Positions 1 through 24,800 of a stretch of DNA of 50,516 nt are shown in pieces. The position numbers and the translations under genes were made by a program. The notes under the pieces were generated by a model. It did no database searches. It saw nothing but the letters and a program-made list of their open reading frames with translations, and was not told where the DNA came from. The stretch's first letter is position 1, and every line of letters starts with the position of its first letter. This DNA comes from an uncultured Planctomycetales bacterium (lineage in GTDB: Bacteria > Omnitrophota > Gorgyraeia > Gygaellales > Profunditerraquicolaceae): assembly GCA_964487475.1 (NCBI GenBank), contig CAZAPM010000015.1, positions 1-50,516 on the forward strand, in the 5' to 3' direction.

Positions 1-2
1 AC

Positions 3-806
3 CCCGAAACGGATCGCGGCATTGACCAGGCCATGATCGCGCGCCTGCCCCTTCTCCAGCGCCGTGCGCCAGCTCGGCAGACCGAGCCCCTGCCTGCGCG
101 CCAGCTCCTGCTCCACCGACTCTTTGCTCTGATACTTTTCCTGGCCCTTGCGGGGAAGCGCCACGCCAAAACGTTTGGCCGCGTCATCCAGCTTAGGATC
201 GGAGTGCTCCCCCTCCTCTAACGCCTTGGCGTTACAGGGAAGTCCTGCGGCGATACGGCGCGCCAGTTCGGCTTCGACCTTCTCCCGGCTCGAATATACG
301 ACCTTGGTCCCGCATTTCTCTTTTGGCAGGGTCAGTTTGAACGTCCTGACCGCGCGCAACAATCCGTAATCGCTGTGTGCTCCCCGGGCGATCGCCGAAT
401 AATGGCTGGGTATCCCGGCAGCCTGCCGGCGCGCAATTTCTGCCTGCGCCGCCGCAGCATCCGGATACTTCCTCTGCGGCTCATAAGAAGACTCGGGAAG
501 CGCCACGCCCAGCCTTACCGCAGCGCGATACAGCGCGAAATTGGTATGCTCCCCCTTCTCCAGCGCCTGCGCATAGGAATCCCATCCTAATGACTGACGC
601 CTGGACAACTCCTGTTCCACCTCCTGCCTGGTCTTATATACTGCCCGGGACGGCTTTTTCGGCAGCGCCACGCCGAACTTACGTGCCGCATACCAGAGGG
701 AAAGGTCCGCATGCTCGCTGCGCATAAGCGCGCTGGTGTGGCTCTTCCACCCCAGTTGTTCCCGGCGCGCAAGTTCTGCGTGCACGGCTTCGGCATCCGG
801 ATATGC
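3..806 (-). repeat. Second tandem array of the ~55-aa basic repeat (>=5 copies, runs off the window)
   Basis: AYPDAEAVHAELARREQLGW..EHADLSLWYAARKFGVALP and four further copies, ending LVNAAIRFG at the window edge. Confidence 0.9.
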
Positions 807-3800
807 CAGCGTGCCTCTCTTACGGCCTTCACCCGAACCTGCGGCGGCAACTGTGCCGGCGAACACAAAGACCAAAATGCCGGATATCGAGGCGAGGAGC
901 GCAGCCACCGCGATCACGATTACCAAAGGCACCCAAATACTCCCTGACTGCGCTACCGTGCGCGCGGTCAGCAGACGCTCGCAGGGCAGGATCACGGTCG
1001 TGGTCGTGCCCTGGCCGGGAGCAGAGCGCACGGTAAAACGGCCCCGGTGCAGCGCCACCGCGTCCCGCACGATCTCGAATCCCAGGCCGTGCCCGCCGGT
1101 CCCCGAACGGGAGGTGACCCTGATCCCGGTACGAATAGATTCCAGAATATGCGCTGGCATTCCCGGTCCGTTATCGGAAATGGTAACCTGCACTGCCCCC
1201 TCCTGGGGAAGCAGCCGCACCTCCAGCCGCACCTCCGGAGAAACGGTCCTGTGCTCGGTAAAAGCCTTATTGATATCTTCGAAGATATTGAAGAACATCT
1301 CCCAGATCTTGACCCGGTATCCATGCACCAGGAACGACTGCCCCGGCTCCACGATCCATACCACACGCACGCTTTTCAGAAGCCCGGCCTGGCAGGATTT
1401 CTTGAGCACCTCCCGCACATCCACGTCCGACTTAAGGCCTGCGGCGATCCCGCTGTTGATCACCGTTTTGACCTCGGTGATGATCAGTTGCAGCGCGGGC
1501 ATAACACGGCGGAAATGCTGCTGGGGGAATTCGTAATTCGGATCCGGCTCCAAAGGAATACCCATACTCTCCAGGAGACGCTCCGCGGTCCCGTACTCCC
1601 GTCCCCAGCGACGCATCGCGCTGGCAGCCCAGAAACACCTGAGCATCGCCATCCGGTACCTATGCGCGGGCAATTCTCCAGAATATTTCCGGGTGATCTG
1701 CAGCACCCGCTCCAGTATGGATTTAAGCCGGAAAAGAGGGGCTTTGACCACGGGAGCGTCGAAACAGGAAAGATCCGCCGACATCATCATGATCGCCAGA
1801 ATATTATTGATGTCATGAATGGCATACCGCAGCAAGGTAAGGTTGGAACGCAGCTTGGCTTCGGTCACGGTAGAGATGATCACCTGCCGCTGCAGGCCTT
1901 CCAGCTTCTTCCCGACCAGCTCGTACTCCGGCTCCTCCCGCTGCGCGTCGATCGCCTCTTGATGCGCCTTGCCCTCCACTTCTTCCGCATGCTCATGGCG
2001 GCCGATGGCACGCCAGACTATCAGCCGCAGCCGGGGCAAAGAAAAGTTGCTGAGAATGATCCCCTCTGCTTCGACGGTCAGATAGACCCGGTACGGCTGC
2101 CGGCGAAAATCGCCGAATATCTCGGGCAACGCCTCCGGAGCCCGGATACCCGGAAGCAGCCTGAAGAATCTTACCGGGATACCCCGGATCGACACTTCTC
2201 CGGGAACAGACAACTCCTCGGCCAGAAGTTCCCCCCGCGCCACCCACTCCAGACGCTGCGTTTTCTGCTCGGGAGTAAGATTGTTGAAGAATCCGCACTC
2301 TCGCTCTTCGGCTCTTTCCGTCCGCTCTTTTCTACTCCCGGTTTTTTCCTTGAACCTGCGCGAAAGGGCGATCGCCTTGCGTACGCTCTGCTCCATGATC
2401 GCCAGGCCCCGGATATGTCTGGAGCGCTGGTTGGCCGCGTCCATCAGCCGCTCTGCATCGCTTTCCAGGCCCACTTTTGCCGCAGCAACGAGATGCTCGA
2501 ATTTCACCCCCACCTTCTGCGCCTCATCCACGAACCGCTCGGCGATCTTCTCGGGATACCCTCTGAAATGTTCCTGCACCGCAGCGCGGGCTGACGACGC
2601 GCCGCTATTGCCCGAGACGGCGGATTCCGGTGCCGGCTGCGAAGAACGCGCCGAACGGCCGGCGCTGTCGCACGCCAGCTCGTAGATACCCGCCCATTCC
2701 CCGTGCGCGCACTCCGCGCGGCGGCTCCGGGGAAGTTCGTCGAATACGCCTAAAAGCAGCGCCAGCCTGGTGCGGGTCGCCTCCGGCACTGCCGCCACCA
2801 AAGCACCGTTGCTCAATCCCTGCGCCTCCCGGCATTGATTGAACATCTCCAGCGCCTCCCACCCCGCCATCTTCCCTTCTTCCAGCGCTGCCACCGGATC
2901 ATCCATGGAAAGAACCCCGTTGACCACTCCGTCGACGAATGCATACAGCGGCATACTGCGCAGCCACATCAGACGATGTTCCTTATGCATCATCCCGAGC
3001 ATGCGCATCACAAGGCTGCGGGCAGCGCGGCCCCATCCGTAGCGCGCTTTAAGGCTGTCCGTGCGCGCAAAGCTGGTCAGCCACAGCGCTATAGTGGCAG
3101 AAGCTCCCTGCAACGCCTGTTCCGGGATCGCTTCCAGAAGCGCCAGCGCTTCCCTGGGCTCCCCGGTCTGCATGAAACACCACGCCATGCGGAAAGCCAC
3201 CTTAGGATGATCCCTTCCCAGGGTCGCGGTATCATGATAAAGGTAAAGGAAAGGCAGGCCTTCTTCGATTGCCGTCGCCGCATCCGTCCCGAACACCACC
3301 GGCACGTCATTCTCGCAGAAATCAAGGTATATCCCGGCAAAACGTATCAGCGCACGGACGCTGATCTGATCGCGCTCCAGAAGCAGATCAAAGGTACCGT
3401 TCGGAATGCCCAGCCGCGTTTCCGCCAGCGCATATCCTTCCCCATAGGCGAAACGCGAGGAAACCAGGACCGAGAGCCTGTGCTGCCATCCCTTTGCGGG
3501 CAGCGCCGCGCCGGCCATCGCCGCCCAACCTGCTTTACCGACCTCCCCCACCAACCTTTCCTGCCTCGCCAGAAGCGTGCCGTCAGGAAGCGTTACGGAA
3601 TATTCACGGGCGGCCGCGCGAAGCGTAGTATCCTTCTCCTGCCCGCAGTTCAACGCGCCGGGGGTGCAGGCTTTTCCCTGAAGGACCCTCTCCACCAGCG
3701 CGCGCCGGACATCCTCCTCGGATGAGTATTTCTTGCGGCCGACAGGCAGCTTGACCTTGAGACGTCTCGCGGCATCAAGGAGCGCGCTGTTTCCGTGCGG

Positions 3801-6800
3801 CCCTGTAGAAAGCGCCTTATAGTGGTTCTTCCATCCGAGCTTCGCGCGCCGCTCCATCTCGGCCGTCACTTCGGCTTTGGTCTTATAACGGAAGCGGGCA
3901 GGTGCGCAAGGCAGCGGTACCCCGAAACGTTTTGCCGCATCGCACAACCCCTGGTCGGTGTGCGGGCCGCGGCGCAGCGCGCGGTAATAGCTGGGGATCC
4001 CCCTGATCTGTCTCCGGGCCAGCTCCGCCGTCACTTCCTCCCTGCTCTTGTACCGGAACGTGCTTCCCCCCGGGATCTTCGGAAGCGGCACCCCGAACTT
4101 TTTCGCGGAACGGTAGAGCTTCGGATCGGAGTGCATCCCGTTATCCAATTCCTTTGCGGTGATCGGCAGCCCCGCTTCTTTGCGGCGGGAAAGCTCGGCC
4201 TCGACCGCGATCCGGGTAGGATACGCCACCACCGGAGTCTTAGGCAGCCGCACCTTGAGGGTACGGGCTGCGCGGTAGAGTTTCAGGTCCTTATGCTCCC
4301 CCTTCTGGAGCTGCTGCGGGGTATTCTTCCAGCCTTTGCGCTTACGGGCCTTGAGTTCTGCGCGCACCGCATCCGCAGTCTTATAGAACGCGGTACTCTC
4401 GGCGGCGGGGAATGCGACCTTGAATTTGTATGCCGCGTACCTCAAAGAAAGATCCGGATGCTCGCCTTCCTCCAAAGCCTTGGGATTGCTCTGCCATCCC
4501 AACCCTGCCCTGCGGGCGAACTCCGCCTCAACCGCTTCTCGGGTAAGATATTTCGGGAGATCGGTCTTTCTCCGGGTCGGCAGGGTCACTCCGAAGTGCT
4601 TAGCCGCATTAAGCAGTGCCCTATCCCTGTGCACCCCTGCGCTTAACGCCTTGTAATGGTTCGCTTTGCCTTCCGCAGCACGCCGCGCAAGTTCCTGTTC
4701 CACTACCTCGCGGGATTTATAGGTAAGACGCAAGGCATCGGGAAGCGGAACGGAGAACTTCCTGGCCGCCCGGTACAGGGTCTCATCGGTATGATCTCCG
4801 TGCGCGAGGTCAAGCGCGGTATTGCCCCATCCGAGAGAAGTGCGGTGCTCCAGGGCAGCGGTCACGGACGCGGCATCAGGGAACCTCGGCCCCCTGCGCA
4901 CAAAGGCCACCTGCAGGGATTCCGCCTTTTTCACGCGGGAAGGGGCGGCAGGCAACGGAACAGAATATCTCGCGGCGCCCAAACGCAGAGGGATGTCTTT
5001 ATGCGCCCCGCCCTGAAGGGCCCGGTCGAAACTGGGGATCCCCTGTGCCTGCCTGCGGGCCAGCTCGGCTCTGACCTTCTCCTCCGTATCGTACTTCGCC
5101 TTCCTTATATTCTTATCCAGCACCACCCCGAACTTCCGGGCTGACTTGGCAAGAGCGTGATCGGCATGCTCACCGTCCGTCAGTGCGCGGGAATGGGATT
5201 CCCACCCCCGCGCCTTGCGTGCGGCCAGCGCTGCCATGACCGCATCCTTATCCGGGTACCTTCCAGTGATCTCGGGTAATGCCACTGCGAATTTCCTCGC
5301 GGCCTTGTACAGCGGACAATCCTTATCCTTCCCCCTCTCGAGCTTTTTGGGAGAAACCGGCAGTCCGGCGGCTTTTCTGCGGGCCAGCTCCATCTCCACC
5401 GCTTCCCTGGTAGTATATTGAGAAGGAGTGCCCGGTGCTTTCTGAGGCAGAGCGACTTCGTATTTTAGCGCCGCGTAATAGAGCGCGAAATCCTTGTGCT
5501 CTCCCTTGGTCAATCCGGCGGCATGACAAGGCAGCCCCTGCGACTGACGGAACACAAGCTGTGCCTGCACCGCTGCCGCATCCCGGTATTTGGTGCGGGG
5601 ATCGACGGTCATCCCCGCCAACAGCACCCCGGCGGCGGCACAGGGGCCGACCCAGACAAAAACCATGACCGCAAGCAGTGCAACCAGACCGGGACTTAAG
5701 AAACGCCGGATGAAGTTCTGCACCGTCTCGGGCCGCAGCTCCTGCAGGTTCGGCACGAACCCCTGGCAATAATTCCAGAACGCGCTCCCGCACGTCTCCA
5801 TCAGTTCTGAGATCCACGGCTCACCCTTGACCCTGATGAAATGATGCGCGGCCGCTTCTTCGCGCACGACACCGAGGAATCTTTCCCTGTCGGTGATATC
5901 CGCCAGAAAAGACTTGAATTCCAGCAGGTCCCGGGCCTTGAACACCACTTCGCGATTCTCATAACTGCCGGGGGGGATAGTGAAACACCTCTGCTTCTCG
6001 TCAAACTCAAGCGCCGCCCCGCTGAAGGAGAATATGCACAGCAGCTCCCCGGATCCCCTGGTCTCGACCTCTACCTCTCCGGTAAAGATCACGTTGCCCT
6101 GCGGCAGGTAACGCAAGGGCACGGGCGCGCCTATCCCCAGGTAATGCAGCACGCCGTTGCCGTTGACCCCGGGGACGCGCTCTTTTCTCAAAACGGAAGC
6201 GCGTTCCTGATGGAGAAGGAACTCCCCTGCTTCCATGACCGTAAGATTCACTCCGTCAGGAACCATGGTAAAGGGGAGCCGGCGCTGATATTCGGCCATG
6301 GTCCGCACTCCCAGGGACCCGAAGGCGAGGCGTTCGAATAAGGTCGAACCCAGCGCATACTCCTCCATCCCGTCCGTGACGCTGACCAACATATGCCGCA
6401 GCCCCTTAGGCGGCCTGCCCATCCATGATTGCTGGACGTATATTCGCAGCACGCATATCTGCTGCGAAGGTATTCCTTCCGCAAGGAGCGCTTCCACCAG
6501 ATGCCTGGCGGCGAACTGACAGTCTCCCCCGCGGACGAATACCGGGGACCGGGTCGCCAGCATCCCCCGGCAATCATGCAACCCCTGCGCGAACCACTCC
6601 CCGAACCCGTACTCATCGACCCTGGACTCCTGCGCCAACAGTGCCGCCGAGATCCTCTCCGCATCCGACACCGCCGCCGAAGCGTTCTTGATCACGCCGG
6701 TGAGGACCCCCAGGTTATATTTGAAGTGTCCCCAGACCGCATACGGATAGGCTGCCAGCCAGCTTCCCCAATATCGTTTACCTGTGCGGCGGGAGAAGGC

Positions 6801-9800
6801 ATCGTCCAAACCGCCGAACCACTCCCATGCCCTCTTCTTCAGATCGTCATAGTTCGACACCAGGGTGTGCGCGCCCATGAAACGGTACATGCCATGCGGG
6901 GAGGAGAAGAACTTGAATGGTTCCATGAGCGGCGCCCATACCAGCGCGATACCCCAGCCTATCGGACGCCTCCAGAAGTTCAGCCACCAGCGCCCGCGCA
7001 TCGACCAGCGGTAGAGCCGACCGTACCACGCAGTGCGGGCCACTCCCGGGACGGGTCCCAAAGGATCCGCCTGCGCTCCAAGGAACAGCGCTTCAAGCTC
7101 GTCCGAAGGCTGCTCCGGTTTCCACCAGCGCTGAACCACGTACTCCTCGTGTGCGGATGAAGCCGATACCGCGCCTACCGCGCCCAGCGCGTTCGATTCC
7201 CCCGGGATACTGTTGACCGCCGCACGATCCGGCGCATGGCCGGACACGAGGGCGCGCAACAGATACTGCCCGTTCTCGAATGTCCTCTGCTCGAGGGGAA
7301 GCTTCAGCAGCGCCTCCAGCATCCAGGGATATGCTTCGATCGCGGGATAGATCAGCTTCCTGCCCGTCTCCATCTCCCAGAGCGCAATGAAGGTGAACAT
7401 CTCGTCCCGGCTGGCGCGCGCGGCGGAATGGCACTCGGTGCAGACGGCGTCATCATGCATGGGAATGTTCACGAACACCTCGCGGTAACAGGATGCGAAC
7501 ACCGCATGCCACTGCGGGATGGACCCCTCCCACTCCATCACCGCCAGAAGGAAGTCTCCGGCCGTATCCGCAAGCAGCTCATCCAGCGCATCCTTCCCTT
7601 CCTGCGCCGGCGCCCGGTTGATATCGACCACGAACGCGTTGATGATGTGCCCGATCTCGTGCGCGCCTACCGCAAAGCACATCTTCGGCGCAGCGGCATC
7701 TTCGATCAGGTCCTTCCTGCCGAATTTCATGAAGGAGTTGCCGACCTTCGGAAAATCCTCCGTCAGGAATGTCTGCATCATGATGGTGTTGAGCAAATGC
7801 TCATCGAGCGCTTCGCTCGCGAACCTCGATCCGTCGCGGCGCACCAGGTCCTCCCGGATCACCAGCCATATTGCCAGCAGGAACGCTTTCCACTTCTCAT
7901 TGAGCCACACGGTCGAGTCGGGAAGCAGGTCCAGCGCGGTCGTATCCGCATGCCGGGAAAGGAGCTCCCGGGCAAGTCCCACCGCCAGGCCACGCATCCC
8001 CGATGCCGGGATCAATCCGAACGCATAGATGCGCACCTCCAAAGGAGCCTGCTCGTTAAGCAGAGTGTTCAACGCGGCCTGCTTATACGTGGATCCGGAT
8101 ATACGCGGAGACGCTGCCCCAAGGTAGCACGAGAGTTTTTCCAGCAGGTATCTCCCGTCCTCCTCCTTCTGGAACTTCCTCGCCCGGTATACCAGGCTGT
8201 TGACCGCCACCAGACGGTCATCCTTGGAAAACGCCGGATTGGCGATGATTGCGCGCAGGATATTGACGGCTTCTTTGCAGCAAAGGCCGTATCCTCCGGT
8301 AGCCAGTTCCGCAAGACTCCATATACCCTCCGACTCCTCATGCCGTTTCGTGACCTTCAGATCCCGGAACATCTTCTCCCACAGGGAAAGGTCAACGGCC
8401 TTGCCTGTTTTTGCCGCCCGGGCCAGCGCACGCGAATATACCCGAAGCAGGCTGCCGACCGCGGAATATTTCTGGTTGTTTTCCGCCCGGGCGCAAACTG
8501 CGAGTTGCTCGAGCGCCTGCGCATTACCGCCCAATGCCAGCGTTTCCAGCTGCGCCAGCCCCCTGGCGAAAGCATCCTGCACGGTCATACCGAGGAGGCA
8601 TACTCCCGCCGCAGCGACGCCCGCGCCGGGCAGCAGGGCTGAGAGCGCCGCCAGAAGACAGAGCGCCAGCACGATACCGGCGCGCTTCGCGAACCGGTGC
8701 AGAGCCTCCTCCACCGGCATAAATGGCGCCGGGACCAGTCCGGTGCCGTGCACTTCCTTGTCGGTAAACACACCCGTGAGCGCGCTCACGCCGGATCGGA
8801 ACCCTTTATCCTCCAACGTACTCCGGTACAGCCCGCGGGAGACCATCCTCTCCAGATACGGGATACGCGCCTGCTCGAGCATCTGGGATGCGGACCGGGC
8901 GATGATCCCCTCTCTTCCGGGCATATTCGCGACCAGGTAATAGACCAGGCCCTTGTACCCTACCCGCACCGGATCATGGTGGTAGGTCACTCCGGGGTCT
9001 TCGATATGAGTCCCGTCCTTGTCCAGGAATTCAAAGTTGTCCACTGCCACATCGACCATGATCCGGCGCTTCGGATGCGCGTCGCACACCCTGAGGATGA
9101 GGTCATGCCGCAGCGTGCGCACCGCCTTTCCTCCGGTTCCGACGGCAGCGCCGATCATGATACTGGCGTGCGAGAACGCGTGCTCGACCGCCTCCCAGTC
9201 GAACGCATCGATCACTTTCAGCTCACCATGAGAACACGCGCTTCGCCCGTACTCGCCGGCCAGTAAATCCTCCAGGTAAGGAATGCCGTGCTTCTTGGCG
9301 GAGATAATGACCCGTGCGCCCATGCGCCGTGCCTGCCAGAGCGCGGACAATCCCGCGGCGCCGGCGCCGGTGATGAACACTACGACATCCCTGAGCAATC
9401 CCGGCGCGCAGGCATCCGGATACGCCCCCAGCATCTGGTGCACCCACAAAGGATCCGCGAACACCTGGCCGTCGAGCAGGACCTTTTCCTCATTAAGATA
9501 AATGGCCCCTTGCAGCACGGCCTGGGCCCCGGCCACGATGCTCATAGGATCGAGACAGATATGCGTTTTAGGGAGGTGCTCCTTGGCTTTCCTGACCAGG
9601 CCCGGGACCATGATCCTTCCCGGAGCACCGGCGGAATCGATCCACTCCGGCCGCATGAAAAGCGCCGCATCCTGCGCTTTTCCGGTGATCCCTTCCAACG
9701 CGATCGCGGCGCACCCGGTCTCCAGCACCCTCTCTGCCATCGTGGGAGAGTCGATAAAATGGAAGTAGGTCATGAGCGCCGGGCCGATCGGGTCCGGCGA

Positions 9801-12800
9801 AACCCCATGCCACGCGGCATATTCAAGCAGATGCGTTACCCCTGCGGGCGTCAGCGCCACGCGGCCTTCATCGGGAAGCCGCTCCTTGACCACGCCGATC
9901 ACTGCGCGCGCCCGGGAACGGGATGTCCTGCCGACTTCCCCCATCAGGGAGAACTCGTCCGTGCCTTCAAGCACCAGCGGCTGCTTGACCTTGAGCACCA
10001 GGTCAGACCCCTCCCACACCTCACTCGCGCTCGCGACCAGGGAGGCGCCCGCATCCTCATACTCGTCATTGCTGAAGCCGCTGCGCACCCCTGCTCCGGA
10101 CTCGACCAGTATCGCGAGATCCCGCTGATCATTCGCGGTGTGCGCGGCAACGGTGCTTCCCGCAAAACACATCCCCCCGGCCAGGGAGCACACGAACGCC
10201 AACATCGCCAGCAAGGGAGTATTCCGCAGTACCTGCGCCAGACGGGAGTACACCGCATGCACGAATGAAAAATGCGCCTTGCCCACCCGGATCTGCTGCC
10301 TGAACATGGTGATGGAATCCCGCACCTCCTCATTATCCAGCGACGGGTCGTTCGGGATACGCGCTGCTGCCAGCTGGTCCGTAAGCCTGCCCAGCGTCTG
10401 CAGGTGCGGCTCCATGGCCAGGATATACTTAACCGCATCTTCTTTGGCAAACACCGGAGGCTTGTTTCCATACACCATTTCGACCATGCTGCGGTGCAGG
10501 GGAGTCCGGGAACGCACGGTGTGCAACGCTTCGCTCAACTGCTGGCCTAAGTCTCCCACGGTCACCGGTACCATATCATCAAGGTAGAAGACCAGGGTCT
10601 TCAATGCCGTATAGAGCGTGCTATCGAACTTCTCCGCGATGCATACGCATAACGCATGCGCAAAGGCCTTTATACGATGCTCCTGCGATACTATCCCTTC
10701 CGCATCCTCCCGGGAGAAAGGCCGTTTCTCTCCCTCATCCGGAGAAAAGACGAACTTCTCGCCTCCGCACTGGCGGTACATTTTCTGCAGATGCGCATAC
10801 AGCGCAGCCTGCGTGATCTCATCCTCGAGTGCCCGCTTGATCAAACGCTGGGCACGCTTCTTCAGATCCCCGGCCAACGCCATGGAAACGGTAAAGGAGC
10901 AGAGCCTTCCGTCCCGAGCCAAGCGGCTAAGCATTGCCTCTGTCTCCTGCGGGCAATGGGCTGCCATGAACTCCCGTCCGGATAAAGTCCGCGCCTGCTC
11001 TGCGGAGACACCGTCGATCATCCGCTCATCCGTACGCATGCGCCCGATGGACGCCAGCAGCTGCTCATCCGCAGAGACCACCATGCCGGCGGCCGCCAGA
11101 CCTATACCCGCCGCGGCAGGGACATTCCCCAGCAGCAGTACTATGGAGATCCCCGCCAGTATCAGGGAAAACACTCCGGCAGGAGCTGCGGCGATTACCC
11201 GGTAGAAACGGCTGGCCGCGCCGGCCGCGCGGTCGATCCAGTCAGTCCTTTTCCCGGTCAACGCGACTGTCTGAGCCCTCCGCCACGTACGCATCTCATC
11301 ATCGGAAATGTGGATATCCGCGGTGGCGATACGGGGATCGTTGCGTATGACGGTCACGGTGACAGTGCCTGCCTGCGGCCGCGAGATCTCCAGCATCAGG
11401 GGATCGACCACGGCAAAAGGAGAAGCCCCGCGCAAACGGTATATCTCCCAGGACATCGCCGAGAGCGATTCGCCGTTGATCGTCGACCAGTACGGATTAT
11501 CGCTGAACACCTGAATGCCGGCGCGCTCGCAGTACGGGAACCCTGCGACCGGCACCAGCGCCGACTCGCAGGCCTCAGCCTCGTCCAGCATCCGCTCAGC
11601 GGTCAGGGCGTCCTTACGCTCGTAATAGTATCCGGCGCTCATGCGGTACGCCAAGATCATCTGCCGGGTGAACTCGTAGAACACCGCCATATCCCTGCGG
11701 GGATTGCAGGCACGCGCATTGGCCAGGTTGGATGCGTCGAATCCCCTGCCCTGCACTCCGAACACGGCCTTGGAGCGGTCCATCAACGCCGAGGGTTCGA
11801 TCCCCCAGGACTTGATCAAAGGCGCACCGAACGCCAGTATTGCCAGGGCCTGCACGTCGACCGCCGGCAAGGTGCCGCCCGGACCGCGCCGGAACTGCTT
11901 TCCTGCCACATCCACGCAGTTGTTCCTGACCCACTGCCTGACCTTTACGGCCTCGGCGAGCGCATCTTCACGCTCCGCTGCGGTCAGGTACGGAGCGAGC
12001 ATCTGCAGGAACGCGAAATAGTCCAGATTATGCTCGGTGGAGAACTTGTCCCTCCAGAACGCATCCCATCCCATGGCGATCCCGCCGCCGGAATGAGGGA
12101 TGGAATTCTTCACCCAGAGATAGATGTTCCGCGCCAGCGCCAATGCCGCGACGTTGCCGCCGGCCTGGAAATATTTCAGGGAGAATATCCCGATCCATAC
12201 GTTCGGACCGACGTGCACGGTGGACTCTCCCCCGACGGCGCCGGTCAGATAATTATACATATTGGCGTACCCCTTGAAGCCTCCGCGGGCAGCCTGATAG
12301 TCATACACTCCTTTATAGAATGCGAAAAGTTTTGCGGCCACCGCATAGGGCGCGTTTTCCGCCAGCAGCGCAGCCAGCCCTGCCGCCGCCTGATCATAGG
12401 TTACGGCCTGCGCAGCCATGAAGGTATCGCTTGTCCCCCGGAAGCTCACGAAAAGCCCGGTCGTGGCGTTGCGGCCCAAAAGCATCGAGGCAAAGACCTG
12501 CTGCGCCTGATCAACGGACTGCGCCTGCGCCCAACGGAAACCCGCGCCGAATAATACCCCGGCCACTCCCGTCGCAGCCTTCGCGAGAAAATCCCTCCGG
12601 GAGAATCGCGATGATGCCGGGATGGACAATTGATAGGTATCCGGGACATACCGCGAATCGCCGCTGTTGTTGAACCCGAGTTTTTGCATCAGCCCGGCTG
12701 CTTCCCGGCTTACGACCCATCCCCAGGCACGGCGCAACCCCATTGCCTGCGCCTGAGCGAGCGCGGTCTTAAGCAGCCCTTCGGCGATCCCGTGCCCGCG

Positions 12801-15800
12801 CGCGCAAGGAGCGACCACCAGCTGCTCCAGTTTCACTTCGCCGTTGGCGCCGTCGAAACTCGTCGAAAGATACCCCCGCACCTTTGCTCCGGTATCCGCA
12901 TACACCCAGAGCTTCGCCTTCGCATCGCGCGTGATACGCGAGGCAAATGCGGAAGCCAACACCACCTCGCCTTCGGGAGGGATCAGCATGGAAAGTTCGC
13001 TCAATACCGGTGCATCCTCGGCGCGGGCCGGCCTTATGCCTTCGAGAGGATCGGCGTGCAGCAGGGATACGTCCATCAGGGAAACCTGGCGCGTCCACGG
13101 CACGAAGCCTGTGATCAACAGGTCATCGGAAGTCTTGCCCTGTTCAAAGAAGAATGCCCCTTCACTAGTAGCGACGATACCGGCGCTGCGGCTATAGCGG
13201 CGTACCTCCACCTGCATCTGTGGATACCTTCCGGCGATCAGCCGAAGCTGGGCATCGAGCAGAGGATCATCCCCCTGCGCCGCGTATAACACCATCTGCG
13301 CCGGGCATCCCGCGAGATCGGCGCACACCACCCGAGCCAGCTCGGAAAGCATCCCGTAACTCCCGAATCCGTCGCGTGCCCATACGTGCGCAGCCGCTGC
13401 CCTCTCCCCGTACGGTCCCTGCGCCCAGGCTGCGGCAGCAATGCAACTGGTGCACCCCGAAGTGCCCAGGACGTCCCGCGATCCGAACTCCTGCTTCACG
13501 CATGCCCATCCCTGCAGGGCATACGCCATATCCAATTCCCGGTACGGACCTCTGCTTCCGGGGACATAAGGAGAATCCGTCCGGACAAGGGTGTTCGGGT
13601 CCCTGGCGGCGAACACCCTCCACCAGCCAAGCCGCGCAAATGCGCTGCGGCTTAGGTACGCCCATACATCCTTGAGGGTAGGATACGGCGCGGACGGCAT
13701 CACCTCGAAAAACGCCTTGAGCTTATCCTCCGCCGCACTCCCCGCTCCCAATACCGCAGGCAATGCGATCCCGAGAAGCAGCCCGGCACCGAGCCCCTGG
13801 CCGAAGAGCGCGCACACGCTCGCGCCCGCCAGCAAACCCCAGAAATGGATCCTCCTCGCCACACTGCCGCGGTTCTGGATATCACCGGCCTGCACGCGGG
13901 TGAACATACCGGCTGCTCCCTGCAATATTCCCGCGAACGGCGCAGCCATAAGCCTTAGCGATCCCTGACGGACGCCTGCATGGACACTGATAAGTATGGT
14001 GCGAAGGACGGAAAGCGCGCAACGGACCAAAGAGACGGGATGGCGCATACGGGGATGCTTTTGCAGTGAAAGGAAAAGATTGCGCACCGCCTGACGCATG
14101 ACAAAAGGCGTGACAACTCCCCCTGAAGTGCTCGCACTCTTGTGCCACACCAGGGACCTGCGGGTGACCGCCAGGTTGAACCCGGCATCCACCATCCTCT
14201 GGGCCAAGTCCATTTCCTCGCCGTACGCGAAATAACGGGCATCCCATCCTCCGGAAAGACGCAGCGCCCGGGAAGACACGAGCATGCACATCCCCCGAAC
14301 CTCATCCACGCGCATGACATCGGGGAACGATTGTATATCGGTCCTTCCCGCGCCGATCGTCGAACGCCTGAATAATGCCCGGCGCATGGAACGGCCGCCG
14401 TAGTTCTGGATGCTACGTGTCGGCCGGTTGCCCTTCATCTGCAGCACCATCGGCCCGGCGACTCCTACGCTTCCCCGGTCCAGGCCGCATTCCGCGTCCC
14501 CCTCCAGGCACAATCCCACCAGAGGCTCGATGAAATGCGGGGCCACGCACATATCGTTGTTCAGGAAAAGCACGTACTCCGCGCGCGCGACATCCAGGGC
14601 GTGATCGATCACCACATTATGCCCCTCGTCAAAACCGAGGTTCACGGGACTGCGCAGCATCACTAAAGGTATCGGAGAGTACCACATCGCTCTCAGGCGG
14701 GAAAGTTCGCAGGCGGCAGAACCGTTATCCAGCACCACTACTTCCAGCGGCCGGTAAGACACGTGCATCAGACTGCGCAACAGCCGCTCCGTATCCTCCC
14801 ATCCGTTATGCACCAGGATACTGATTACCACCTTGGGAGGCCCGCGTCCGGCATTCGCTCCGTCAAATCCTACGGGGACCCGGGAAACGTACGGGTCGAC
14901 ATCGGCCATCCACGCCAGGTCCTTCTCCCAGCGTGCCCGCGCATGGGTATCCCACTCCGGCATCTGCATGAGCCTTTTCAGGAATATCGTGCGGTGCAGC
15001 GATTCCAAGCGGGTAAGCGCTGCGGATTCCTCCGGAGACAGCCCTGCCACGCTTCCGGCTACCAGCAACATCCCCGCCGCGCCGGCCAATCCCTGCACTC
15101 CGAGGAGAAAGAACATGAGCGCCAGCAACGCCACGGAGTAAATGGCCAGTTTTCCGTTGCGAAAATCGAATTTATCCGCGATACGGGAGGTGATCCCTCC
15201 CCGGGAACAATCCTGGGTCACGCGGATCATATCGATCCCGGGGACAGCCCGTAAACGGGCGAAAGCCCGATAGAACAACGCCGTACCGATCCCCCGCCAC
15301 CTCCACTGGCGGTGCACGCAGATCGCGCTGATCTCCCCTTCCCGCACCTCGGAGAACACCCGAGTGACATTGTACCCTACCACCTCCGTACCGTAGCGGG
15401 CGACCATGATCAACCCGTACGGATTTCCGGGGGTGAGGATATAGGACCTGACCGCTTCCAACCCTGAAATGAACGTCTTTTTAGGATCGGCCCCTCCCAC
15501 GAGATCGGGGGCAAAATGTTCGAACCAAAGACCCGTAATGGCCGACGCATCCCTTTCTCTCGCCTCCTCGATCAGCACATCCAAACGCGAAGGTTTCCCG
15601 GGATCGCCGTAGAAATACTCCGAGCCGAGCACGCTTCCGGCAAGCACAATCCCTGCGGCAGGACCCCATCCCAGGAAAGCGGCAGCCAGACCGGCCGCAG
15701 CCAGCAGGAAGACTGCGGAAAGCCGGGGAAACACAGAGGCGGCGATGCGGTGATAGTGTTCGGAGGGAGCGGTGGAGAACAGTTTCAAGCGGGACGGTGC

Positions 15801-18800
15801 AGGAGGTCCGCGGGGTGAATGCTGCGGCGCAACCCCCAGCAGCTGCCGGGAGAAATGCTCCCGATGGATCGCCACATAATCGACAGGGTCCAGCACCAGG
15901 ACCGCCAGGCCCTGCTCAGCCAGGTATTCCATCAACCCCTGCTTAAAGGAAGTGAAATGCGTGCACCCCAGGATGATCCCGTCATACTTTTTCAGATCGC
16001 CGTATGTTTCCAATCGCATCAACAGATGCGCAAGCGTCTCCAGGGTCTCGGCCCTCTCGATCAAGGGGACCAGTTCGCCGACCGCCAGGGAATCGACCGC
16101 GATCCCTAAGGATTCACCGATCATCTGGTAATGTCCCGAATCGACGGTCGCGGAGGTGGCCAGGAGCAGCACATTGCGGCATCCGGAAGCGCGTAGCATC
16201 TCCCTGACCACATCGCTGATACCCGATACATTCACCTGATACTGCGCTGCCAAAGCCTTCAGGGACACCCTGGTGCAGATGGTATTGCAGGCCACGAACA
16301 CCGCCCGGGCCCCGTGCGCCACCGCGGCATCCATCAGCCCGCAGGTAAGCGTATACAGCTCTCCCGTGGAACGCGAGCCATACGGGCAGTTCGCCGTATC
16401 CGATACCGCCACCACATCCATCCCCGCCTGGTGGAAGACTTTGGCGGAAAATAGCGCGCCGATGCCGGAATCGATCACCGCCAGCCTTGCGCTCGGAGAG
16501 AGCACCGCGTGCAGCGGTTCGGAAAGGAAATAGATATCGAATTCCCGCGGGTCACCATCCACTCGCGGCCAGCCGTTGACCAGCCGGACCTTATCCAGCG
16601 CCTCGGGGAAAAAGGTATCCCGCTCCGTGATCCTCATGATGCGGGCCCCGTGCGCATCAGGCTCGACCACGAACTCTCCGACCGGCATCTGGTAACCGTG
16701 ATGGTAAAGCTCGAAGTGCCGGATGGTATCGGGGTCGAAAGGCTTATCATCCTTATCCACGAACCGCACCTCGGCCAGCCCCTCAGCAGCGATCTTGCGC
16801 AGCACATGGACGACCTTGACGTTCTGCACCTCAAAGACCCGGCACATCCCGTTCCCGGCCTCGAGCAGCCTGCGCAACAGCGCTTCGGTGATCCCGGAGA
16901 CTTCGCCTACCCGGTTGATGTTCTGCAAAGTCGGGACCGCCGCGCCATGGTCCAGGGAGAAGTATGCCACCGGGGATTCCCGCGCGCCGAGCACGACGTA
17001 ACTTGCGCCCGCATCACCCACTCTCCTGACCTCGTGAAGGGTACCCTTGAGTTCCAGCGGCTTCACGAGCGCTTCATGCGCCCCGCCGACGCGGCCATGC
17101 GCCGTATCGGGATCGATCTCCTGTGCCGGCACATACCAGGCACGCTCCCCGGGGGGAAGATTCTTCCATTCCCTCGCGGAAAGCGCATGCGCGTACTGTT
17201 TCTCACCGCTGATGAAGATTTCTGCGACCGCCGCCGCCATATCACGCTGCCCCACGCGGAGTGCGGAAGATTTATCAAGGTAAGGCTTACCGTCCGCCAG
17301 GAATACCTCCAGCTCGCGGAAATATTCCGCCACCTCCGCTTCATCGATCTGCGACTCGGCAACGGCAGAGGTCTGCCTCAGGGCCTTCACGAAACAGGTC
17401 TCGGCGCGCAGCATGGATTCCGTCTCATCCAGATATTTCGAGAGCTGTTCACGCGCGTCCCCCGCCAACGCATGCAGCTTTCGGCGGATATCGCCGAATG
17501 CCACCTCCCGTGCGCTCAACGAAACGAACCGGCGTGTCTGATACTCTCTTCCGCTCATTACGCCCATAAGCACGGTCGTGATCTCATCGCGCGCATACCA
17601 GCCCAGGAATACCCGGCACGGCGAAGCCCCGGACTGACCCTGCACCTCGAAAGAATGATAGTACTGGGTCCACCGGGAAAGCGGCGGCGCACACAGCATG
17701 GTAAGCCGGGGCAGCATCCTTTCCCACTCGAAGCGGTACGCATGCGAGAAGGCGAACGCCAGCACTTCCCGCAACGGCACATCCCTGCCAGCCATCAGGT
17801 ATGCTCCCCTGTCCGTACGCAACAACATCTGCTTAGTCTGGCCGAGCGATTCGGGAGCGGTAAAGAACCGCACCTTGGCGCCCGTCTTCAGGACCTCGTA
17901 CCAGGCGGCAAGGCCGGCCATACCCGGGACCTTATGCAACTGGGGCAAAGCTTGGGACTTTTCCAGCAATCCCGCGATGGCCGTAAATCCCCTGTACTCG
18001 CGCGGCACGTCAACCACGACGTTCTCCGGCAGTTGCTCCACTCCCGCGAGGCGCTCCCGGGCAATACCTTCGAAATATCCCGCCAGCAGGATATCCTTGG
18101 CCTGCGCCGCAAGGGATATCCCGGAACCCGCAGAGGTCATCTCCTTAAGCATCGCGGCCACAAAATGCCTGTTCACCGGATACGCCGCCCATTTCCGGGT
18201 ATATCCCATTGCCGCCGTCTCCCCCATCTCGTCCGGAGGAAGATGGAATCTCTCGTGCCCGGCCAGTACGCCTACCCGCGCATCCCGGCTTAAAGAATCG
18301 AAGAAGCGCCAATGGACCATCAGCACGTGGCCCTCCGATACCTCTGCCAGCACCAGCCTGCCTCCTCCCACAACCACTACGGTATCGATCTGCTCGATAA
18401 AACACTGCTGCAGAGTATCGTTCACCCGCTCCTCCAGCTCCTCCAGCTCCGACTCCGACACCGGCTGCCGGCATCCCGTATCCGGGACCGCGGTCTCGAC
18501 CGTAAAGACGCCCTCCCGTTTCCTCAAGACGACGGTATATTTATCGACCGGCCGGCACAGCGCGGGAAAAGCCAGGCCTTGCGGCTGCCCAAAGCTGCTG
18601 CCGCGCTCAAGGCGCGCGAGCAGCGAGAAGAAGAACCGCAGGTAAAGCCGGGAATCTTCGGTAAGCGTGGAAAAATCGGAGACGTGGTAATTCTTCCGGA
18701 TGAGGATACGGCCCAAGGCGTAATCGACGAGCGCAAAATCCGGGTGAGCGGAGAATATCCCGGAAGCGCACAGCAGAAGAAGCGCATAATACTCGTTTTC

Positions 18801-21800
18801 TCCGGGATACGCTCCGAGCATGGTCAGCACGCGGCGGTGATTCGAAGCATAGAACACCTGCACCATTTGTTCGGTAAGCCTGGCCAGCCTGTCCCAATCC
18901 GCCTCTTCCTCCACCGCTCCTTCTCCCCAGGCCCAGTCCTGGGCGTGCGTGGCGAGGTAATCCGACATCAGATGCGCGCAGGTATGCGCCACCTCCGCAT
19001 TTGCGCCGTTGGCACAGAAAAACAACTGCAAGGCGGAATGCCGGGTGGAATCATACACGAATTCCGGATACCCTCGGGTCAGCGCCTCAGCCCTGACCGG
19101 GGAAACGACATCCATCAGCGCTTCCCTGGCGTCGGTGAAATTCCCCGAATCCAGGCAGATCTCGGCGATCCGCATCGAGATCAGCGGGGGACGGATGCCT
19201 CCCTGTTTCAGGGAAACACGGTAATACTCCAATGCCTTGGTCAGAAAGAACAACGCCGCCTGTTTCCTGCCTCTTAAGTCACAGATGGTCGCCAAGTTGG
19301 AAAGGCAATCCCCCGCCGTGCAAAAAGAGGACTGGATCAGCACATCCTGCCGCACCGCTTCATCCAGGTCCTCGAAATCGGCTTTGATCTGACGGATCTC
19401 CTGCCGGGCATCTCGCAGCTTGGAACGGATGGCGCGGACGTGCCCGGACCAATCGATGTCCTTGAACCTCTCCAGCGCCCAGAAAAGCCAAAGCCGTACT
19501 TCCGGGGATACCAACAGCGGATCGAGCGCCATCTGCATCAGCGCCTCGCGGGACTGCGGCCCGCCGATTATTCCGGCGGCCTTGACGCATGCGGCACGGG
19601 CGCGGTAGTACGGCTCACGCTTCAGGTGACGCGCCAGCAGGGATGCGGCGTTGCACCGTGCCTCTTCGTCACGGTACCTGGCCTGGCCCAGAAGATAGGC
19701 GGCGATCCTGCGGTCGATCTGATACTCCACCCCGTCCTTCCCCAGCACCTGCCGCAACATCTCCTGCTGCTGCGGCCTGATCTGGCCGCTGTACACCTCG
19801 TGGAATACCGCCAGAAGCAGCGCGGCCTTATACGGCATCTCCCAACCGCTCATATCCTCCACCATGAGGCCGGTTGCGGCACACACATCCTCCGGCAGGA
19901 TCCCGGGAGTCTCCCGCTTCACGCGCGTCACCAACGCGCGCGTTGCAACCACCTGCCGCAGCCTGGCCGCAGGCACTTTCTGAAGCACCCGGGTATGACG
20001 GTACAGCGCGGTAGAAAGCGCATACTGCAACGTGGAGAACTCGTCATTCATGGTGCGCACGATATCCACCATATGCACCAGGCCGCGCGTCCTCTTCAGC
20101 TCATAGATCAGAGACCACATGTTCGCCAGGGTCCGGTCCGTGATCCCTCCGGACATATGCTCGTAGGAATGATACCGGTACTTCCCCTCACAAAGCGCGT
20201 TCAGTATCTCATAACGGGCGGCATAGGCGCCTCCCACATTGGCGGTCGAGAACGGGATGAAAAGCGCGGCCCGGCTTTCGAGATTCATGATCGCGGAGGA
20301 GGTAGCGGCATGCGGGGTAGCCTCGATGACGATGGCCCCGTTGAAACGCTGCGCGTCCTCCCGGTCAAAGCTATGAGGCCATCCGGTCAGCACCAGCACG
20401 TCCGCCCGGGCATACGACTTTCCTCTCGACTCCCCTTCGCTGGGAAGGCCGTGAAGGTACGGATGATTCGATCTATACGCCTCCATCACCCCCTGCAAAG
20501 GCGCAAGATTATGGTCCTCTATCCTCTTGTTCACTTCGTGGAACAGCTGCGCGGGCACGACCCCGGAGACCGCAAAAAGTTCCAGCGCATGCGTGCGCTC
20601 ACGGGGATCATCCCGGCCCTGGATGCCGACGATCTCCATGGTCACCCTGCCGAAATAATCCTCGAAGAGCACCTTAGTGAACCCGGCGGCATATTCGTTG
20701 TTGTATCCGTGTATCGCTACCCGCAGGATATCCGGCTGTCCGTCGGGACGGTACGGGATATGTTTAAGGTACCACTCCCGCACATACCCGTTGCGGGCCA
20801 GACCCCAGGTCGCGACAAAAGGGCTTACCCCTTTAAGCTTGATGCTCCCGAACTCCGGATCGATACCCACCGCCGCAGGCAGGGGAAGGGCCAACCGGTT
20901 ATCCCTGGCTGCCGACCGCGCGGCGTCCCTGATCAACCGCATATCGCCGTAATCAAGGCGGGTACCGCGGGAAGCCACATAGCATTCTCCCAGAACCCGG
21001 GCTAACGTGACCGCCACTGCCCACTGCCTGAGCACGCGCGGCTTCATGGCCTGAGAGGACATCACGATACGCGTATACGCGCCGCTGAAAGGGCTTATCC
21101 CCAGGTGCTCGTCATCCCGGCTGCGCGCCAGCAAAGGCACCACGGAAAGGAACTTACCCCTGATCTCGCCGTAATCCGCCGCACCTCCGGCATAGAACAC
21201 GTCTACCGGCCCCTCCGCAATGACCGTCCTGGGTTGCAGTGCATTGCCGTGCAGCACGGTCAGCGCTTCGAAATCCATCCCCGAGGTCACCGGGTCATCG
21301 TGGTATACGTATACCAGCCTCCAGGGCATGCCCCGGCCCCAGAGCTGCACAGGAAGCGCCCGGATGAAAGGTTCCGGATCGAGGACAATGGCATTCGCCA
21401 ACGCATGCCTCCTGCGGAAAGGGATCTCGATCGTATCGAAGCGCACCGCGGCCCGCAGCGCCTTGGCCAACGCGTTTTTTTCCTCCTCATCCTGTATCCC
21501 GGGGACCAGGGAAGCCAGCCGCAGCAACGCCGCCTGCCTCTGCGCTTCCCCTTCCCCCTGCCCCGGCGCGTAGCTGCCGAAACCAAGCAAAGACAGTATC
21601 AGGTTGACCGCTGCGTGGGGAAGGAGCAACCCTGCCAACCACGCGACCGGCCCCATACCGGTAAGATACGCGATGGAGCAGGCACCCAGGGTCAAAATGG
21701 AGATCACCAGCTTTTCGGGGGAGAAAGCGAACTTCATCCTGGAGGAAAAAGTGGCATCGGTGAGCCCGAGCACATGGAAGAGATGCCAGGCCAGCAGCAG

Positions 21801-24800
21801 ACCAAGGAGCGTCCAGGGGTGCAGCATGATCCCCAGCATCGGCAGATGCAGCATTTTCGAAACCGCCCATCCGAGCACGCCGACGGCAAGGATCTTCTCC
21901 ACCAGCAGCGGGCCGACCACGGTATGCCTTCCGTACAGCCGCTCCATGAACGGCCACACCCCTCCGCGGATATACGGATTGCGCAGATGCCTGCGGAACG
22001 TGTACACCTTTGCGAGCATCATCACCGCGTCCTTATCCAGCTGCTGCAGGGTACTGGCGGCATTCGAGTCATGCCAGGATATCGGGACTTCCGCGACCTT
22101 CCCTCCGGCGAGCACCGTCAAAAGCAGCAGCTCCACATCGAACGCCAGGGAAGTATCCCGGGCAAACGCCAACAATATGCGCAGCAGAGCGACGGAAAAG
22201 AGCTTGAAACCGCGTTGCGTATCGAAGATGAAACGCAGGAGCGGCTGGAGGAAATGGATGCACCGGATGAACGCCCGGCTGGAGAACATCCGGTGCAGAG
22301 GCACCCCCCGGGCATGTCCCTGCGCCATCCAGCGGGACCCGATGGCGGCGACCAGCCCGCCACCCCTAAGCTCCTTGAGCAGCAGTCCAAGCTGGAGCAG
22401 GTTGGTAGAGCAATCCAGATCGGTATACCCTATGGCGTGCGCCCATTTCTGGAGCAGGGCATGACGCATACCCCACAGCACCGCCCCTCCCTTCCTGCTG
22501 GAAATGATCCGTTTCACCTCCGGGGTGATCCGGTCGATCACTTCGATCGAGCCCGGGTCAAAGTCTTCTCCCTGCAGCCCATACTCTTCGCTCAAAGCAT
22601 TCCGCAGGACCTGCACGCAGCGCGCCGAACGCAGGCCCGGCGTGCCGTCATCCACGAATATCAGCCGGAATCGCACATGAGGGCTGACTCTCGAAAGTTC
22701 TTTCAGCTGCCGCACTTTCTGCCGAAGCGCATCCTCCCCGTACGGATTCAGGTAAGGATCGCGGGGGCAAAGGCGGCGCACTTCATCGTACATCGGAACG
22801 ACCAGCGCAACGTTCACCGGCTGGCGCAATCCCCGGATCACTTCGAGCGAAGCATCGATCTTTTCCTGCTCCTGCGCATCCCGGGGGCCCGCTGCCGGAG
22901 ATGCCGGCAGCGTGGTGAGCGCGGAGAAGAGGAGCTCCTGCGCCATTACGTGCGCTTCGGATTGTTCCATCCCCTGCTGCTCGAACATCAACGCCAGCAC
23001 GATCCGCACATACTCTGCGCGACAAGCAGGATTAAGGAGAAATTGCCGGCCGGCGGTAAATCCGTTCACCTTCACATCCAGCAGGGAAAGCACGCGAAAA
23101 AGCCACGCCGGCCCGGCCCGGATCAACCCGAGAGAGGCCACCTCCTCGGTAAAAGCCTTGCCTGCGGAGGCGCCCCGGGTACGCTCCAGCACCATCCGCA
23201 CCGCATCGAGATATCCTTTGTCGGGAAGCGCAAAGGCGCCGGAGGATTTCCGGCAGGCGACCGCCGCAAAGGAATACACGACGCCCGCCGCTTTACGTTC
23301 ATACGGCAGCGCCTCCTTCCCGTCAATCCGGCTGATCGCCCGCACCTCAAAACAGTACCACTCCTTCAGCCAGAACCTGCCCCAGGCTTCACCGGCACCT
23401 GCCACCAGCCGTATCAGCAGGGGCGTCTGGCGGTTCATCAGATACGCGGAAAACACCGTCATGCACAGGTCCCACACCTGCTCTACCGGGACCTGCAGAT
23501 ATCCGGGGAGGAAATTTGCGACCAGGAACGTCTTGGGCGTCCCCAGGCACACCTTGGCGGCCAGTACGTCCGCGGTCTTTGCCGACTCATAGGAAGCCGC
23601 TCCCATAAGGGTACGGGCAAGGCCGATGGCTTTCGCCAACAGCAGGGAAAGGATCGCGCCGCCGACCAACGCGATCGCAGGCTTAAAGACAAGCAACGCT
23701 CCGGCCGGCCAGGCCGCCGGCAAAAGATGCACCAGCGCATAGATCACGTTCGTCCCCGCTCCCTGCACGATGCCGAACAAAGAGACCATGGCGCTTTGTC
23801 CGTAGCGGATCACCCTGCCCTGATTGAGGTACTGGCCGAATACATCCGCAAAGAAACAGATCACCATCCCTGTCGCCATGTCCAGCAGCAGACCGGTCGC
23901 GATCCCGGACACTCCCGGAAGCTGTTTTGCCGCCAGATACCACCAGAAAGCCCCGGAAAGATACCCGTAGCCGATAAGCACAAGGAAGATCGCAAGCACA
24001 CAGAGCACTGCCGCCAGGCGCCAGGCAAAAGAGAGGTAAAAGTCCGGATACACCTTATCCAGCAGCTCCACGGCTTCGGGAGCGATCCGGCTGAACATCC
24101 TGCGGCTGATCCTGTCCGCCCGGCGGTGCGAACGGCCTTCGACCCGCTCGATGTATTCATGAACTGCCAGCAGGTTAAGCGCGCTGAAACAAACCTTGCC
24201 CCTCCCGTCCTTTTCAGCGCTGCGCAGCGCCTCGTACACGACCTCGGGAAGGAATACCAGGAGCCTCCCTTCCCGCACCAGCGCCCACACCTCATTGGAG
24301 GCAACCCGGCGCACTGCCGGCGGCGCATGCGCGGCATACTCCATGCGGTAGAATTTGACCGGCATCCCCCGGACGTGCATCAGGGCATTACCCCACACCT
24401 CGGTCCCGGAAATATGCCCCTGATCGTACTCCCCGGCCAGAAATGAAACGTCCTGCGCGAAGTTGCGCCCGAAATATCCCGCCGGCCCGGAAAACGCCAG
24501 CGGCACACCGGCAGCCCGGGCCATCAACTTTGCATCGACCCCGTGATCGGCAGCCACTGCCGTCACCAGACGGGACCTTTCCTGATCCGTCAGGTGCGCA
24601 AACGTGACCCTTCCCTGCGCGGCGTCACGGGTGACCTCCGCGTGCGTCTGTACGCTTAGCCGATGCTTGGCTGCGGCAAAGTATCCGAAATCCGAACTTT
24701 CCAGCACCCGGATGAGTTCCAACACAGCCAGGAACTCCGGATTCGTCACCGGCTCATGATAGGAAGGTTTTTTCTTCCCCTTGGAAGGAACATACACGGA

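Follow-up and report, generated by a model that had tools for sequence, protein, structure and literature searches.

Omnitrophota are a host-dependent phylum. Giant proteins are read as machines for attachment and cell-wall attack in the text of West-Roberts et al. (10.1101/2023.11.21.568195), and the architecture of the DNA stretch studied here (50,516 nucleotides, below called the window) fits that of the multi-enzyme giants of Omnitrophota as presented in the consulted parts of that work, of Nielsen and Lui (10.64898/2026.06.07.730766) and of Seymour et al. (PMC10066038). Another class of multidomain chains, the polyvalent proteins, is outlined in the text of Iyer et al. (PMC5512222): they have 2-15 domains, are encoded by phages and conjugative elements and combine disparate enzymes with nucleic-acid-binding domains in one chain, for which processing by zincin-like peptidases was proposed. 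The class of host protein is already known, and the repeat described below belongs to a wider family that overlaps with a Pfam entry.

The window is contig C15 of genome G000, and its minus strand is entirely one stop-free frame of 16,838 codons (3..50516, ORF analysis), open at both ends. This frame encodes the middle portion of a giant membrane protein with many enzyme domains, of the Omnitrophota type. A 55-nt in-frame overlap joins it to the upstream contig C22, giving 22,475 contiguous amino acids. Downstream, the frame probably continues on C16, which carries a 7,804-aa minus-strand frame opening inside a repeat array; this join follows from repeat register with zero sequence overlap, and with it the total is at least 30,279 aa. 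No contig bridging C15 to C16 was found among the contigs of the genome itself, of public runs and of metagenomes. HAD and sugar-enzyme modules of the window recur on other fully open contigs (among C22, C16, C23, C28, C33 and C34) and, since several of these share them, the gene may exceed 35,000 aa. A Pfam scan of the four largest open pieces (C22, C15, C16, C23), divided into 28 chunks, detected HAD hydrolases, a metallophosphatase, NUDIX, an M50 peptidase, a superfamily-1 helicase, TPRs, a racemase, GT2, GNATs, alanine dehydrogenase, GH65, PfkB, VTC and a histidine kinase, the kinase and the helicase being encoded in the window itself. As judged by Pfam and a hydropathy scan, hydrophobic segments separate the enzyme domains. 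Two other repeat-bearing proteins, P0002 and P0013, are Omnitrophota by source label, and frames with matching repeats are present in G117 and G125, which are placed in the same class and family as G000. The genome is therefore likely that of an Omnitrophota bacterium.

Several features of the surrounding contigs deserve mention. Below position 26950 of C16, the giant frame is followed by genes that by eye resemble those of a sugar ABC transporter and of regulators of the ROK and LacI types, as with other reported giants. Contigs C5 (frames of 7,707 and 9,464 aa) and C36 contain a signal-peptide-like start and a C39 peptidase; the frame crosses an N gap into C36, and it may be the N-terminus of the window's giant or a second giant. 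It also holds one degenerate copy of a module of ca. 120 aa, a RAPP motif followed by HExxH, that is found at amino acids 1, 2014, 2982, 4234 and 5463 of L003 (C22) and 1330 and 3168 of L004 (C23). The module has no Pfam match and is present also in giants of G125 and G324. RAPP-type motifs number 15, against 2.7 expected (maximum 7 in 200 shuffles), and the module is a candidate self-processing zincin-like peptidase. Four matches to it in the window were dismissed as evidence, all being seeds of the profile. The hairpins between enzymes often end in a small residue followed by G-[MST] (window positions 38525, 35258, 15644, 15062, 11093, 8597, 5621 and 863), and these ends are possible processing sites. 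Apart from the seeds on which it was built, a profile of nine hairpin linkers retrieved a single weak copy (14.9 bits), which is near background, so a conserved cleavage signal is unsupported.

Two arrays of a short repeat lie at the downstream end of the window frame. Array 1 (3585..5591, minus strand) consists of 12 copies, whose cores occupy, in order, 5445-5591, 5274-5420, 5115-5261, 4950-5096, 4740-4886, 4578-4724, 4407-4553, 4242-4388, 4080-4226, 3909-4055, 3744-3890 and 3585-3731. The window part of array 2 (3..806, minus strand) consists of five, with cores at 660-806, 495-641, 324-470, 153-299 and 3-137, the last one cut by the contig end. A repeat profile built from 15 window copies recovered all 17, including the two that had been held out (E 5.5e-15 and 9.9e-12), and the count given in a preliminary description of this DNA (12 copies at 3585-5591 and at least five at 3-806) was right. 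The same profile recovered all six full copies with which, after one fragment, the open minus-strand frame of G000:C16 begins and which had also been held out; no further copies were found by it elsewhere in the six frames of the genome. Since C16 starts with the tail of a copy and the window stops four residues short of a copy end, array 2 is probably no shorter than the 12 copies of array 1, as reasoned from register with zero sequence overlap.

Each array is directly preceded on the minus strand by a hydrophobic hairpin-like segment (hydropathy scan), at 5604..5714 for array 1 and 831..959 for array 2, with gaps of 5 and 10 aa between hairpin and array. The earlier remark that arrays begin right after a transmembrane hairpin applies to both window arrays but does not hold as a general rule, because just 5 among 40 further proteins showed such a start. 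Array 1 is followed by a partner region of ca. 380 aa (2358..3488, minus strand) that was identified by homology to the C16 region behind array 2 (30% identity over 389 aa, E 5e-45) and that contains a TPR (3108-3227, minus strand, Pfam); 400 other phylum genomes yielded only two weak matches to this region. Next comes a histidine kinase (978..1826, minus strand), defined by an H-box-like motif at 1826 found by eye and an HATPase_c domain at 978-1292 (E 2.7e-18). The order in each cassette is thus hairpin, ca. 12 repeats, TPR-containing partner region and variable tail, the tail being the kinase after the first cassette and a VTC domain after the second. Since homologous regions stand behind both arrays, each array is the head of one copy of a duplicated cassette and not one side of a frame around the kinase. 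To describe them as flanking the kinase, as was done before, is correct in that the kinase lies between them but misleading, since it trails only array 1 and VTC follows the second. Two stretches after the window's arrays that were convincing by eye, with an Atlas lead at 0.76, were rejected as not significant: an XRE-like one, for which 9 of 60 shuffles scored as high, and one resembling sigma region 2 (E 0.095).

The repeat core is 49 aa long without internal gaps, and R15, G19 and L37 are invariant in the 17 window copies. The units are basic, as had been proposed: array 1 has a net charge of +59 and a pI of 10.1 and the window part of array 2 a net charge of +12 and a pI of 9.6, while the remaining 15,901 aa of the frame carry +44. 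K or R is kept at unit positions 1, 5, 14, 15, 29, 42 and 43. The residues between G[LW] and GEH had been put forward as setting specificity. The variation is, however, spread over the whole unit: entropy is 2.1-3.1 bits at variable positions 21-29 and peaks at position 35, after GEH (3.6 bits), which leaves a special specificity site unsupported. This bears on the possibility that the arrays read DNA in a programmable manner, one base or short word per unit, as in TALE arrays, where repeat units are near-identical apart from two residues. Like TALE arrays, the window has tandem helical units, a dozen or more of them, with an ungapped core and regular spacing; arrays of G117 and G372 also have 12-13 copies. 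Unlike TALE units, those of the window are 43% identical and their variation is dispersed, with no confined hypervariable site. In addition, the linkers are variable, single-copy relatives exist and no copy-by-copy colinearity of arrays 1 and 2 was found. We therefore regard such a reader as highly improbable.

Mean identity among the 23 copies is 43% for protein and 49% for DNA, and agreement at four-fold sites is 37% versus 33% by chance, i.e., synonymous sites are saturated and the copies are old. The contrast between conserved protein and diverged DNA that was pointed out earlier is thus borne out, the core residues being kept despite saturation. Strain differences were scored, with two-change codons counted singly, on contigs of four public runs from three studies that cover the stretch in part at a shallow depth of ca. 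3-7; there are 29, of which 20 are synonymous and 9 nonsynonymous at a site ratio of ca. 1:3 (pN/pS ca. 0.15), which shows that the stretch with array 2 is under purifying selection. Among RNA data no carrier of the stretch was listed. Array 2 (window 1-806) accounts for 21 of the 29 differences and array 1 for none; the clustering suggests that window 1-806 is an imported or recombined tract where the assembly breaks.

One can ask whether the repeats are decaying passengers from mobile elements that were amplified in a permissive giant gene. Their distribution is patchy in a way that would suit passengers: among the 401 phylum genomes, the repeat profile has matches in 10, one of them G000 itself, each time in frames of 2,518-16,838 aa, and it matches 2 of 59 other genomes of the same family; good matches to the partner region are limited to G000, and domains next to the repeats are often degenerate. 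On the other hand, the frame is intact, core residues have outlived synonymous saturation, and the differences within array 2 are 14 synonymous versus 7 nonsynonymous at the 1:3 site ratio. We consider decay improbable.

The preliminary description could not assign the repeat to a named family, and neither can we: no match of the arrays above cut-off was found in Pfam, PHROGs or NCBIfam, so that the repeat is newly defined; solved structures gave no sequence match better than E 0.076, and an Atlas search gave no usable match. A search with a 23-copy profile (E<=0.001) retrieved 267 representative proteins. The best 150 of these comprise 93 proteins with a four-helix unit that ends in FGSW..AL.AAG and is spaced by 68 aa (FGSW type, all proteins <=1,224 aa), 35 with a unit of the window's type that ends in V-x-L-P and is spaced by 55 aa (16 of the 35 proteins >1,000 aa), and 22 unclassified ones; none are mixed. 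The number of copies per relative ranges from 1 to ca. 19. Homing-endonuclease-associated repeats had been named as a family to be checked, and the lead was a good one as far as the FGSW type is concerned, since 63 of 67 scanned relatives (taken from the best 150 and chosen as mostly non-giant) pass PF18780 (HNH_repeat). The window units themselves fail: the window arrays have no match to PF18780 at E<=1 (gathering cut-off 26 bits), a search of their own genome gave the same result, and two overlapping sets of short-variant or unclassified relatives score 0/20 and 0/22. When short-variant proteins are aligned to the FGSW profile, the match ends within columns 38-46 of the 56. Comparison of the window unit with the FGSW-type profile gives P 9e-20, a value that is circular because the FGSW set was selected with a window-derived profile; comparison with 17 PF18780-selected units gives E 0.11, which 7 of 40 shuffles equal and which is not significant. 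The PF18780 score of the FGSW relatives comes mostly from the helix that is absent from the window unit, so the link to PF18780 is only transitive. As judged by these sequence comparisons, the window repeat is a shortened sister of the FGSW type that reaches PF18780 only through it.

PF18780 itself matches 20 of the phylum genomes, nearly all in short frames. Seven small proteins (P0055, P0059, P0074, P0108, P0121, P0132 and P0149) combine the short unit, in 2-4 copies, with Cys-x2-Cys clusters and a conserved, beta-rich-looking C-terminal domain without a Pfam match, and the short unit is therefore not confined to giants. No relatives were found in viral contigs, phage genomes, metagenome contigs or among longer proteins by searches sensitive to close relatives only, and three loci of one FGSW-type relative have no shared neighbourhood. 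The term "homing endonuclease associated repeat" and related terms were not found in the literature searched, where PF18780 appears only as a table row of one paper; neither the variant with three helices nor a connection between it and DNA-handling domains of giants was found there either.

An AlphaFold2 model of two units, made with 51 aligned two-unit rows, has a pLDDT of 97.4 and a pTM of 0.69 and contains three helices per unit (positions 5-18, 24-29 and 35-44), in line with the three-helix fold expected earlier; the units are predicted to be arranged as beads on a string. A five-unit single-sequence model was poor (pLDDT 60.7). Searches of solved and viral folds retrieved nothing, neither with Foldseek at E<=0.001 (best E 1.9) nor at Z>=5 (best Z 3.4), and no helix-turn-helix match; rows for Pax6 and GcrA were discarded as noise-level. 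An HTH-like unit, as proposed earlier, would be compatible with these results. That no DNA-binding domain matches the fold is what one would expect if the arrays were structural spacers or protein-binding scaffolds that keep the cassette off the membrane and have no ligand of their own. The varying copy number of the relatives would fit such a role, as would R15 and D34, which could form an internal salt bridge, and tandem repeats are the rule in giants in the text of 10.64898/2026.06.07.730766. A spacer would, however, need neither a charge of +59 nor basic residues fixed in position, and standalone relatives pair the repeat with DNA-handling domains. We consider spacers or scaffolds unlikely.

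The reading that we prefer, with a probability of roughly 55%, is that the arrays bind DNA. They would act as strings of small basic units, each predicted to have three helices, that hold DNA avidly and with loose specificity; at the head of each copy of the duplicated cassette inside the giant membrane protein there would be one such array. The short unit would have descended from the four-helix FGSW type by replacement of helix 4 with the V-x-L-P tail. DNA binding, in line with the nucleic-acid-binding array proposed earlier, is suggested by the company that the relatives keep, namely Ros/MucR-like fingers, a nuclease-helicase, sigma-70 and XRE. Among the 67 scanned relatives, 18 match Ros/MucR at E<=1e-3, five of them over cut-off, and an Mrr nuclease-helicase is present as well. 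The repeat of G028 stands directly behind a sigma-70 domain and an XRE helix-turn-helix. When five genomes were searched for XRE domains, matches over cut-off lay in three giant frames with the repeat, from G117 and G028, and none in the repeat-bearing frames of G000 and G086; sigma matches are present in P0003 and P0138. Seven post-array segments of other giants, picked after inspection from 11 and coming from few, partly related genomes, form a family that resembles sigma-70 regions 1.2-2 (P 6e-5, probability 65%, reversed control 0.16). When the flanks of repeats were scanned, 20 of 26 had no Pfam match at E<=0.02, and DNA-binding matches over cut-off were present in only one; a literature search on Omnitrophota giants and sigma factors found nothing related.

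A conserved degenerate sigma-70-like domain was observed after the arrays of L034, L035, L036 and P0078, followed in several cases by a GS..SD motif reminiscent of pol-beta nucleotidyltransferases.

After a hairpin the chain comes back to the side of the membrane that it left, so array 2 would lie on the face of the ATP-using kinase. The arrays would then most simply be cytoplasmic, and an array that binds DNA would tether it to the membrane or, if the giant is cut, carry the cassette to DNA. The relatives complicate this picture. A hydrophobic N-terminus (by a hydropathy rule, not SignalP) is present in 15 of the 35 V-x-L-P proteins, one of the 15 being a fragment that starts inside a membrane helix, versus 1 of the 93 FGSW proteins; in sequence terms this points to export and not to the carrier's own cytoplasm. 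Among the 15 is a protein of 236 aa that consists of a hydrophobic leader, one repeat and a DnaJ domain. In P0064, P0079, P0085, P0099 and P0130, an L-R-P motif was seen by eye within ca. 15 residues after a signal-peptide-like leader and is a possible export tag.

These N-termini, together with the high positive charge of the arrays, would be accounted for if the ligand were a non-nucleic-acid polyanion (an acidic surface layer or polysaccharide of the host, or polyphosphate) and the array an outer-face adhesin or tether. Attachment and cell-wall attack are favoured for giants in the text of 10.1101/2023.11.21.568195, and the VTC domain after the second cassette would also suit a polyanion. 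The neighbours are of a cytoplasmic type, however, both in the window (kinase and superfamily-1 helicase) and in relatives (sigma-70, XRE, DnaJ), and the four-helix relatives have no internal membrane segments (0/93), some of them carrying Ros/MucR-like fingers. We judge a polyanion ligand unlikely. Another scenario is that giants are exported, cut into cassettes and delivered to the cytoplasm of a host or prey, where the arrays would home sigma-like, XRE or kinase cargo to the host chromosome and reprogram it. Delivery would explain signal-peptide-bearing proteins with DNA-binding, sigma and DnaJ domains, which are useless in the periplasm; we consider it doubtful and offer it as speculation.

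DNA gripping is so far undescribed for giants, which are usually read in terms of attachment, cell-wall or sugar digestion or membrane-bound metabolism. The terms "DNA-binding" and "helix-turn-helix" are absent from the main text of 10.1101/2023.11.21.568195, as are "DNA-binding", "HTH" and "sigma" from that of 10.64898/2026.06.07.730766; the domain catalogues of either work could list PF18780 or HTH domains. If the units bind DNA, part of the giants acts on a chromosome, be it that of the cell or that of the host, and it becomes most puzzling why many carriers have signal peptides. A compact, soluble, well-modelled and probably DNA-binding unit also makes inexpensive testing possible for a class of proteins whose size prevents purification.

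Compared with PF18780, the window unit is likewise a helical tandem unit with a similar rough spacing up to the aromatic-Gly that ends helix 3. It differs in that the FGSW..AL.AAG helix is absent, the unit ends in V-x-L-P and the spacing is 55 versus 68 aa. By eye, 4 of 10 canonical PF18780 loci end in an HNH-type motif, whereas the scanned pieces of the window giant (C22, C15, C16 and C23) have no HNH nuclease.

Archaeovorin-type proteins are at least 30,000 aa long, a size that the window giant (22,475 aa contiguous) reaches with at least 30,279 aa if C16 joins. Like them, it has many membrane segments and GT2, GH65, NUDIX, M50 peptidase, HAD, GNAT, TPR and HATPase_c domains; of the archaeovorin feature set, glycosyltransferase, glycoside hydrolase, peptidase and NUDIX are present and dockerin is absent in C22, C15, C16 and C23. 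Most archaeovorin-type members have a divergent SecA DEAD domain, whereas the window's giant frames have none, the sole match in this genome, whose assembly is gapped, being in a 993-aa frame. The methyltransferase and SAM-dependent methylase domains of archaeovorins had no match at E<=1e-6 in the 28 chunks of the incomplete gene, nor had radical SAM, and the C39 peptidase, which accompanies an N-terminal signal peptide in archaeovorins, is here on the 7,707-aa frame of C5, for which no join to the window's gene was found.

With polyvalent proteins, the giant shares mixed domains in one chain, and its genome's giant frames contain repeated HExxH modules; it differs in being far larger, membrane-threaded and apparently on a chromosomal scaffold. 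We take polyvalent proteins as a working analogy for the window giant, not as a class to which it would belong.
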